A stretch of 64,000 nt of DNA from Octopus vulgaris. Lineage: Eukaryota. The stretch is from NCBI GenBank assembly GCA_951406725.2, contig OX597816.1, positions 93,310,001 through 93,374,000 on the forward strand, read 5' to 3'. Below the pieces are notes generated by a model. The model saw only the letters and a list, made by a program, of their open reading frames with translations. It had not been told where the DNA came from and did not search any database. The position numbers and the translations under genes were made by a program. Shown piece by piece: positions 5,855 to 55,964 of this stretch; the first letter of the stretch is position 1, and every line of letters begins with the position of its first letter.

Positions 5855-6058
5855 TTGTTGTTGTTAAGCAACAAGATGGGTAAGGGTGATTAGGTGATGG
5901 TCTAAGGCTTAGAGGCGGGAGACACCAGACCTTGGAGGAAAAAAGAAAACTTTGGTCGTCTTGTAGTTGAGGGCTCTTTGTTGACACCCGACACCACTGG
6001 GAGGTGGCCCTCGAAGTCGCTGGAAATGGATATCTCCAGGTCCAAATTCTTGGACAGC
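5855..6058 (-). mobile_element. ~205-bp non-tRNA retroposon with (AAC)n tail, copy 1
   Basis: Perfect 12-bp TSD actgactgatta (5843-5854 and 6059-6070); end-to-end similarity with 54939-55149. Confidence 0.9.
5969..6058 (-). ncRNA. Candidate HDV-like self-cleaving ribozyme at the 5' end of retroposon copy 1
   Basis: Manual fold: P1 GCU..CGAC/GUCGGGU, P2 GAGGGC/GCCCUC, P3 ACC/GGU, L3 UCCCAGU, J4/2 CAAA. Not computed or assayed. Confidence 0.5.
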
Positions 6059-53940: not shown

Positions 53941-54938
53941 TCAACTTAATTGCAAAGTTATAGAATTGTAAAAGAATACAGACTGTTTTAAGTAAACAAA
54001 CTATCTCAATAGAAATTCTTCTGTTCCAGTGCTTTGCCATGAAATGTAAAATGATGCCTTCCATAATTCGAGTTTTCAGCATGGCATTTATACATGGCAA
54101 CATTGCCTGAATTTTCTACTTTGTTGTCTGACAGAGAATTTCATAGATAAGTATTTGTTATCTGCAGCTTGGAAAAACTGTGTTCACATTGCTATTTGTT
54201 TACATCTAAATATCATCATTGCACTGCATTTATTTGTAATTTGTAACTATCACCGTTGTCATCATCATCATCATCATCAGTATTGTTGATGTTGTCATCG
54301 TCATTGTCATCGTCATCATCACCATCATCATCATCATATCATGTGATGCATATGGATGAAGACAGCTGTGTAAAGAAGTACTGAGCTCTAACTGTGGAAG
54401 AGATGGATGCAGGAAGACATGGGATGAGGTGACGAACCATGATCTTCGAATGTTGGACTTAACAGAGGTCATGGCAAGTGACCGTGACCTTTGGCAATAT
54501 GCTGTGCTTGAGAAGACTCATCAAGTCAAGTGAAATAGTAGTCATACCCATTACCAGTGTCATGTGAATGGCACCCATGAAAGCATAATTGTGACCGTTG
54601 CTGGTAGCATAATCTTTGAATGTCAGGCTTCATGGAAGCGATGACAAGTGACCAAGATCATTCATGATATGCTGTGCTTGAGAAGACTCGTTAAGCCAAG
54701 TAAAATTGTAGTCGTGGCTGTTACCAGCCTCATGTAAATGGTACCCATGGAATTGTAATTGTAGTTATTTCTGGTGTCATGTAAACAGCATCTGTGCCAG
54801 TGGCACGTAAAAAAGCACCCATTATACTTTTGGAGTGGTTGGCATTAGCAACCATGCCAAATTAGAGTGGAACCTGGTACAGCTCTCCAGCTTACCAGTT
54901 CCAGTCAAACTGTCTAACCTATGACAGCATGGAAAGCA

Positions 54939-55028
54939 GCCGTCCAAGAATTCGGACCAGGAGATCACCATTTCCAGCGACTTCGAGGGCCACCTCCCAG
55001 TGGTGTCGGGCATCAACGAAGAACCCTC
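54939..55028 (+). ncRNA. Candidate HDV-like ribozyme, copy 2
   Basis: GCC[hairpin1][hairpin2]CGAC-UUC-GAGGGCC-ACC-UCCCAGU-GGU-GUCGGGC-AUCAA-CGAA-GAACCCUC; manual fold only. Confidence 0.5.
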
Positions 55029-55149
55029 AATTACAACAAGACGACCAAAGTTTTTTTTTTTCCAAGGTCTGGGGTCTCCCACCCCTAAGCCCTAGACCAT
55101 CACCTAATCACCCTTACCCGTCTTGTTGCTTAACAACAACAACAACAAC
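54939..55149 (+). mobile_element. ~210-bp non-tRNA retroposon with (AAC)n tail, copy 2
   Basis: 12-bp TSD gcatggaaagca / gcatggaaatca (54927-54938 and 55151-55162). The uninterrupted site sequence cagcatggaaagcagacgttaaat is seen at ~58852. Confidence 0.9.
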
Positions 55150-55964
55150 TGCATGGAAATCAGACATTAAATGATGGTGATGATGATGACCCTCATCATC
55201 ATGACTCTCAACATCATTAACTTCATAATCGTGGTCATCATCATCATCATTATCATTCATTCCACTGCACCAGTTTATAGTGTGACTCACACATTATGGT
55301 CTGTGTATTCTCATTAAAATGTTTATATATTATAACAGTTCTGCAGAAGATGTCCATAATACATAATAAAGTAGCAGACAATGATTGTGTTTTTCTTTTT
55401 CTTTTTTCATCTGTCTCTTTTAAGTTTGATAGCAACGTTTGTATCATGTTAATTTGTGCATTTGTGCTTTTATATTAATTCTTCAGCACACATGTTATTC
55501 TAAGGATCATTTCTGCTTTTTCATTTTCTATATTGTAAATATTTTTATTTCAAAGTCATGATATCAAAGAAGTTTGTTTTTATTCCTTCTGTTTGAATAC
55601 ACAAGCATGTTGACAGTAATGTCTCCCATATATCATAGCTGTGTCAGTTTTTAGGCACTCTCTGTAATGGTATGCTGGTACCAGATGTTTCTGTCCTAAA
55701 TTAAATATTGGCAAACTTTTTAATATACTTTGTTGCCAAATGTAGATTGTAAATATTTAAAGTCAGTTTTCTGTATACAATGTTTTTACTGTCTGTTGTA
55801 AGAGCTACTTTCCTTTTTAATGATGGCATTTAATTAATTATTGGAAAACAGATACTGGTGTTTTTTGCTAAAAGGAAACCACTAGTTTCCATCTATTAAT
55901 TCTTAGCATTATTATTTATTTAATGAATTAATTAATCTATTATTATTATTATTATTATTATTAC

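Follow-up and report, generated by a model that had tools for sequence, protein, structure and literature searches.

A short retroposon family of Octopus vulgaris headed by a candidate HDV-like ribozyme with an interrupted P1 helix

Results

Architecture of the element

The window analyzed here is a stretch of 64,000 nucleotides from Octopus vulgaris (contig OX597816.1, positions 93,310,001 to 93,374,000 of the forward strand). It contains two copies of a non-autonomous retroposon of ~200 nt. Copy 2 is delineated from 54939 to 55149 on the forward strand, and its features are listed in Table 1. Copy 1, on the minus strand from 5855 to 6058, is 89% identical to copy 2, is bordered by its own 12-nt duplication, and retains pairing in all of the proposed ribozyme helices. 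An initial annotation of the window, made from its letters alone, had listed the strands of a candidate HDV-like ribozyme, a terminal AAC repeat, and an internal run of eleven T residues; every one of these was located where it had been placed. The 12-nt target-site duplications that it described hold for copy 1, whereas those of copy 2 require the small amendment given in Table 1. In contigs from four public sequencing runs the insert is missing from the surrounding repeat, with divergence points at 54939 and 55151, which is consistent with the borders as called. Note that copy 2 is embedded in another very abundant short repeat (window positions 54780-55190).

Table 1. Features of copy 2, with helices and pairing arms as predicted
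Feature	Position	Strand	Remarks
Left target-site duplication, 12 nt	54927..54938	+	Last base directly before G1 (G54939)
Right target-site duplication	55151..55162	+	11/12 identical to left; one base beyond tail
P1a 5' strand GCC	54939..54941	+	G54939 is the family 5' end and predicted cleavage site; GCC also in 3/4 family B heads, the fourth being truncated
Insertion of 36 nt within P1, forming two abutting hairpins (6 bp, 8 bp)	54942..54977	+	Predicted four-way junction; single U in family B
Hairpin 1	54942-57	+	Sequence
Hairpin 2	54958-77	+	Sequence
P1b 5' strand CGAC (family B: CAAC)	54978..54981	+	One compensatory change
P2 5' strand, 7 nt	54985..54991	+	Three compensatory changes
P3 ACC/GGU, closing a 7-nt L3	54992..55004 (strands 54992-94, 55002-04)	+	Families A and B identical
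L3 UCCCAGU	54995-55001	+	Sequence
P1' GUCGGGC, 7 nt, plus P1.1 position	55005..55012 (P1' 55005-11)	+	P1.1: G in 60/78 copies, A in copy 2
4-nt linker replacing P4; J4/2 CGAA with candidate catalytic C55017; P2 3' strand with bulged A55022	55013..55028	+	Sequence, family B comparison
5' arm, predicted long-range pairing to 3' end	55034..55043	+	Complementarity
T-run (T11, 55051-61) and rest of likely LINE-derived 5' part	55051..55105	+	T-run behind head also in LINE-linked L205 and family B
3' end common to element and partner LINE	55106..55149	+	Contains 3' pairing arm 55119-55128 and (AAC)6 tail 55132-49

A tRNA-derived polymerase III SINE would be expected to carry A and B boxes in a tRNA-like head and to be free of internal terminators. 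The window holds no tRNA gene, and on copy L029 the best A box has three mismatches and the best B box two, as the initial annotation had anticipated; a weak B-box-like word is found at element nucleotides 4-12. Together with the internal T11, these results rule out a tRNA SINE. Rfam provided no match to the element at the gathering score and none on the heads at E <= 10.

The genomic family

In the genome (2.8 Gb, 227 contigs), the first 20 nt of the element have 1,375 exact matches and a 21-mer at its 3' end has 1,179. By coordinates, 15 of the first 30 3' matches have a head among the 5' matches, and the size of the family is thus estimated at roughly 2,700 copies. Identity to copy 2 is 93-100% among the 40 copies with the best scores. 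The family, with the same majority bases, is also present in runs labelled as four organisms.

For an unbiased view of the 5' ends, the first 30 of the 1,179 3' matches were taken in order of position. The predicted pile-up at the initial G is evident, with 29 of the 30 copies starting at nt 1-3: 25 are contiguous from there, three have a head from nt 1 and are interrupted by another repeat, and one (L164) has its head joined to a LINE fragment. The remaining copy starts at nt 24. In a second set of 30, fetched by the 3' half and having four loci in common with the first, 28 begin within nt 1-8. A plain truncated LINE 3' UTR is excluded by such uniform ends, which by themselves do not separate a ribozyme from an internal promoter.

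Ten of the 25 contiguous copies are flanked by non-repetitive duplications of 10-17 nt that end before G1, eleven lie in simple repeats (mostly CAG/CAA), and four have none; duplications of ~12 nt are as in RIME/NARTc-type elements. The flanks of L001-L060 and L161-L190 reveal a strong insertion bias for CAG/CAA/CAC microsatellites. In three of the 30 position-ordered copies (L173, L177, and L183), the same antisense repeat with a tRNA-like head interrupts the element at the same place, with ~nt 140-158 duplicated. This arrangement may represent either an insertion hot spot or a composite subfamily.

The partner LINE and a sister family

The L164 locus led to about 50 old LINE fragments (53 candidates, 42 matches, 30 fetched). 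These family A fragments encode an RNase H (E 1.5e-11) and a CCHC finger, and the last 33-35 nt of the element are common to 26 of the 30 loci at 89-97% identity. A full-length family A LINE was not found. With L164 set aside, eight of the remaining 29 fragments have an inverted head at the 5' junction. In six of the eight the outer edge of the inverted piece lies at nt 108-112, and in six of the eight the piece extends to nt 1-3. Short stubs starting from this edge occur in four further fragments, and the stub word matched three unrelated places as well. Inversions arise by twin priming in L1, and those observed here are read as such; they would imply that the LINE RNA began at G1 and carried the head. 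An A at nt 30 occurs in five of the eight inverted heads and in none of the 78 short copies, which points to a different master than that of the short copies, most simply the LINE itself. The T at nt 111 was not used as a LINE marker for the inverted heads because the target can supply a T. In L205, the LINE-linked head runs on through the T-run, which is likely inherited from the LINE 5' UTR, to nt 145. At head nt 110-112, both L164 and L205 have an AUG before the T-run versus an AAG in the short element, which may have lost the LINE start codon.

A sister family, B, was identified by way of P0122, a full-length relative from the protein database. A near full-length copy is located on contig C10, and its order is head, 2A motif, PHD fingers, endonuclease, RT, and RNase H regions, and AAC tail. 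Four family B heads were recovered (L229, L226, L232, and L415), of which L229 has private mismatches in P2 and L226 is without P1a.

On the basis of these sequence comparisons, the short element is likely an internally deleted descendant of the old RNase H/CCHC LINE and not a SINE headed by a small RNA. Its 5' part likely corresponds to the 5' end of the same LINE, given that the head is joined to LINE fragments and that a homologous head is positioned on the near full-length family B element. The initial description as a SINE independent of polymerase III is thus retained for the missing tRNA and A/B boxes and replaced as regards origin.

To our knowledge, Rex1, Crack, L2, L2A, and CR1 are without RNase H. 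The partner LINE likely belongs to the Ingi clade because a 2A motif and an RNase H occur together in family B, RNase H and CCHC are seen in family A, and RNase H is found in Ingi, an assignment that rests on architecture, with no named Ingi protein among the matches. Motifs of the 2A type are reported in Rex1, Crack, L2, L2A, CR1, and Ingi (PMC3708506), and RNase H in Ingi (PMC13708176). An internally deleted derivative of such a LINE would be the animal counterpart of trypanosome RIME/NARTc. R2, RTE, and L1Tc elements had been cited as precedents in the initial annotation; neither R2 nor RTE is the likely parent.

Several other partners were considered and rejected. Among RTE candidates, the DUF6451 families (30 loci) terminate for the most part in AAG repeats, and neither end of the element occurs in 20 near full-length RTE loci. 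The CR1-like families fetched from the endonuclease and RT searches have nothing in common with it, and an RLE-type fragment in L072 is unrelated.

The predicted ribozyme fold

The order of the segments in the head is that of the nested double pseudoknot, P1, P2, P3, L3, P3', P1', P1.1, J4/2, P2'. In a comparison of L029 from family A with L415 from family B, 17 of the 17 P1, P2, and P3 pairs are Watson-Crick in both families. Four pairs are changed on both sides (one in P1b and three in P2), none on one side only, and none is broken; random placement of the same number of changes matches this in 4e-6 to 8e-5 of trials, for what is a single two-family comparison with linker registers set by hand, MAFFT having misplaced P1b by one column. 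When P1b is left out of the count, 97% of the cells are paired with three two-sided changes, as compared with at most 51% and one in slid controls; shuffles reached that number of two-sided changes in 251 of 500 cases.

The HDV topology proposed in the initial annotation is supported by compensatory changes against family B. Covariation, which it had named as a check on all of the helices and both hairpins, is confined to P1b and P2. P3, L3, P1a, and the G after P1' are identical in the two families, and P1a, being invariant, has no covariation of its own. The strands of P2 are in place as first described, and the helix is extended by a seventh, core-side pair (C-G in A, G-C in B), itself one of the covarying pairs, followed by the bulged A.

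P3 contains three base pairs, and L3, within the 7-8 nt of HDV-like ribozymes, has the conserved U, C, and G, each L3 base being present in at least 74 of 78 copies. The P1.1 G is also found in all four family B heads and shows no covariation. The candidate catalytic C of J4/2, assigned to 55017 from the start and followed by purines, occupies a CpG site and is kept in 67 of 78 copies and in four of four family B heads. Family B has a small P4, and family A has the linker in its place.

P1 totals 7 bp in both families and is split 3+4 by 36 nt in A or 1 nt in B. In family B the strand reads GCC, one U, CAAC, and the helix is interrupted after pair 3, the same step as in family A, in agreement with the split P1 first proposed for the window. 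The uninterrupted 6-7-bp P1 of described HDV-like ribozymes is missing, and no contiguous P1 partner was found in the family A or B heads.

The resemblance of the head to the HDV fold is not due to chance, given the thousands of copies and the covariation against the sister family. The 5' ends of the DNA copies coincide with the predicted cleavage site, both in the position-ordered sample (29 of 30) and in the inverted heads (6 of 8). From the modelled fold, the head probably works like an HDV ribozyme, cutting before G1. A fortuitous likeness to HDV in a conventional polymerase III SINE, or in the 3' UTR of a truncated LINE, is hardly credible and already largely refuted: the B-box-like word and the lack of an Rfam match would suit it, and it is at odds with the absence of a tRNA, the three mismatches in the best A box, the internal T-run, the uniform 5' ends, the homologous head on a near full-length LINE, and a covariation null of at most 8e-5.

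A strict descriptor applied to 28 upstream regions returned only family B and one contiguous-P1 HDV-like match upstream of a retrotransposon ORF (L266:18-85). A covariance model of the core gave no matches in 45 loci and, within the window, only the two copies. In viral contigs the core pattern had no matches and the protein scan returned none. In these scans the four-way junction thus stands without a second independent example.

The insertion within P1

An unconstrained fold of nucleotides 1-75 of L029 gives P1a, both hairpins, and P1b, leaving no junction base unpaired (z -2.0), and the pair probabilities are 0.99 for P1a and 0.65 for P1b. When the insert was subjected to 5,000 dinucleotide shuffles, 25 were as stable, 57 formed two abutting hairpins, and 68 kept the split P1. 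The common variants of the insert (nt 6 C/U and nt 30) preserve pairing. The case for the modelled hairpins is a thermodynamic one only, since they contain no two-sided change. From the general behavior of four-way junctions, P1a and P1b likely stack as one 7-bp helix with the hairpins stacked on one another at the junction.

It is conceivable that the ribozyme is active in another fold, in which P1 consists of the 4-bp CGAC/GUCG helix alone, or of another register, with GCC and the hairpins as a separate 5' domain. The invariance of P1a between the families, which leaves that helix without covariation, would allow for this, but the cut would then lie near nt 37-40 and new copies would be without the hairpins, whereas copies start at nt 1. 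The pair probability of P1a in nt 1-75 and the fact that in both families 3+4 adds up to the canonical 7 bp also speak against such a fold, and we regard it as quite improbable.

Predicted pairing between the 5' and 3' ends

In family A, the 10 nt that follow the ribozyme can pair with those preceding the tail, also 10 (0 of 1000 shuffles), and in family B, 14 different nucleotides form the equivalent pairing (0 of 1000 shuffles), the two ends being taken from different loci. Cross-family controls were equalled in 727 and 293 of 1000 shuffles. Judging from the complementarity, a pairing of 10-14 bp appears to be kept, and to covary, in both families. In two metagenome relatives the pairing was not significant (332 and 342 of 1000 shuffles). 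Among 92 body windows in family B, one paired as well as the 5' arm; it is probably the 3' end's own hairpin. The edge of the inversions lies directly behind the 5' arm in family A and in both family B inversions seen. This position is consistent with a looped RNA offering the adjacent U-rich stretch to a second primer. Alternatively, the 5' arm may be a by-product of such inversions.

Decay of the copies

Every core pair and base is kept in 18 of the 78 distinct full-length copies. Copy 2 departs from the family majority at A55012, where the P1.1 G is lost, at A55023, which breaks a P2 pair, and at one position in each hairpin. Judging from these substitutions it is probably impaired; decay of the core is expected after insertion, and copy 2 is the wrong substrate for a cleavage assay.

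Other features speak against activity in the family as a whole. Without pseudoknots, the minimum fold of nt 1-92 (-35.2 kcal/mol) retains P2 and P3, with P1' caught in a small hairpin. J1/2 is 1-3 nt long; in drz-Agam-2-1, spacers of 0-1 nt are reported to have nearly abolished activity (PMC4908430). Mismatches in P1 have been linked to loss of activity (PMC3774820), and well-folded heads of trypanosome SIDER1-beta elements are described as inactive (PMC4035085).

The head could accordingly descend from an HDV-like ribozyme disabled by the 36-nt insertion or by the loss of P4, its uniform 5' end being set by an internal polymerase II promoter, as with Pr77. Pr77 is reported to be promoter and ribozyme at once (PMC3383444), some well-folded SIDER heads are inactive (PMC4035085), and both the competing fold and the hairpins lacking covariation would fit. 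Selection on a DNA promoter, however, would not predict that the A/B differences in P1b and P2 are all compensatory, nor that the insert is structured in a manner, rare in shuffles, that keeps P1 closed. We think loss of activity unlikely for these reasons.

Discussion

A working model

In the model that we prefer, the first 90 bases of the RNA would fold in solution as an HDV-like ribozyme and cut the RNA just before G1. Self-cleavage would free unit-length RNA from host or read-through transcripts, and an internal promoter such as Pr77 may, by analogy, act beside or instead of read-through. The segment just behind the ribozyme would base-pair with the 3' end. Beginning at the (AAC)n tail, the RNA would be copied by the LINE protein into sites rich in CAG/CAA.

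Taken as a whole, we lean toward an active natural HDV-like ribozyme in which the P1 hinge after pair 3 would accept anything from one bulged base up to a two-hairpin four-way junction. It would head an animal Ingi lineage whose RNA is looped by the covarying 5'-3' pairing, so steering second-strand priming, and would form a class invisible to contiguous-P1 descriptors.

Other heads were noticed in the course of this investigation. L335:548-625, which lies on a contig of a bacterial MAG and is followed by a 2A motif and a retrotransposon ORF, can be read by eye as an HDV-like fold with a 7-bp P1, a 7-bp P2, a 3-bp P3, and a P4, and with a 4-bp hairpin inserted in L3. This would be a further insertion site outside the standard ones in the same group of retrotransposons. 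L259:1628-1685 and L257:91-152, also upstream of 2A motifs, bear a weak resemblance by eye to HDV-like ribozymes, being P4-less with a continuous P1 and an atypical L3. A young RTE family with intact ORFs (L143-L145 and L150) displays, at ~580-680 in element orientation, a structured 5' head with a CUAA motif and several complementary segments. It is possibly another self-cleaving RNA; L143 and L144 gave no match to the covariance model of the ribozyme core.

A natural split P1, if true, would widen the rules of the HDV fold and provide a new site for domain fusion adjoining the cleavage site. Such a layout would slip past standard ribozyme searches. Descriptor searches are reported to permit single-base bulges (PMC4870747), and those requiring a contiguous P1 or allowing only such bulges would miss whole families. 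Ribozyme-headed short Ingi derivatives would extend from trypanosomes to an animal genome, and host transcripts would contain potential cleavage sites in their thousands. The natural pair, with a 1-nt bulge and P4 in one family versus a 36-nt insert without P4 in the other, allows an easy direct test.

Comparison with known systems

The comparisons that follow draw on excerpts of the cited papers. In these sources the P1 of described HDV-like members is short and continuous, with natural insertions in J1/2 or P4, and the literature searched contained neither an HDV-like ribozyme with a domain inside P1 nor an animal Ingi ribozyme, although a drawn example may exist. What would be new here is an HDV-like fold, as modelled, whose P1 is interrupted and which departs from the described members in that feature.

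Bipartite LINEs are known for RTE, Ingi, Vingi, and R2 (PMC5786205). These bipartite non-autonomous LINEs (PMC5786205) and the mollusc LP-SINEs (PMC4758252) have a LINE-derived head, which is likely for the octopus element too, and share with it a LINE tail and the lack of a polymerase III head. The passages available on LP-SINEs describe no ribozyme fold (PMC4758252), and the likeness is drawn from descriptions rather than from Repbase or Dfam sequences.

P4-less HDV-like forms have been reported (PMC10879173, PMC3774820). The minimal HDV-like and theta ribozymes share with the octopus element the lack of P4 and a catalytic C in J4/2, a candidate here; they occur in a phage context, and the excerpts describe no P1 insertion in them (PMC10879173). 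In R2 ribozymes and SIDEs (PMC3774820, PMC6765202), the ribozyme sets the 5' end, as is predicted for the octopus element, P4-less forms occur (silkmoths, abalone), and large insertions are tolerated. The insertions described for R2 lie in J1/2, not inside P1, and R2 is rDNA-specific, whereas the octopus element is dispersed with a CAG/CAA bias. The large HDV-like ribozymes, including drz-Agam-2-1 (PMC4908430), resemble the octopus head, as modelled, in having a stable peripheral helical domain that adjoins P1. In drz-Agam-2-1 this P1.2 domain is positioned in J1/2 and P1 is continuous; the corresponding octopus domain would split P1 3+4.

Short derivatives headed by a ribozyme have been described for Ingi/L1Tc and R2 (PMC6765202, PMC3383444, PMC3185411), and trypanosome Ingi-clade elements carry active HDV-like ribozymes and have short derivatives (PMC4035085, PMC3185411). 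The NARTc, RIME, and SIDER elements with Pr77 L1TcRz (PMC4035085, PMC3185411, PMC3383444) are, like the octopus element, short and non-coding and composed of LINE 5' and 3' ends, the LINE origin of the 5' part being likely in the octopus. Both have an HDV-like head, predicted in the octopus, whose +1 position is the element end, a single-pair P1.1, a candidate one in the octopus, and duplications of ~12 nt, and in both the relatives of the parent have a 2A peptide and an RNase H. The octopus element differs in its animal host, the two-hairpin domain in P1, the absence of P4, the (AAC)n tail, and the 5'-3' pairing arms, as predicted here from sequence.
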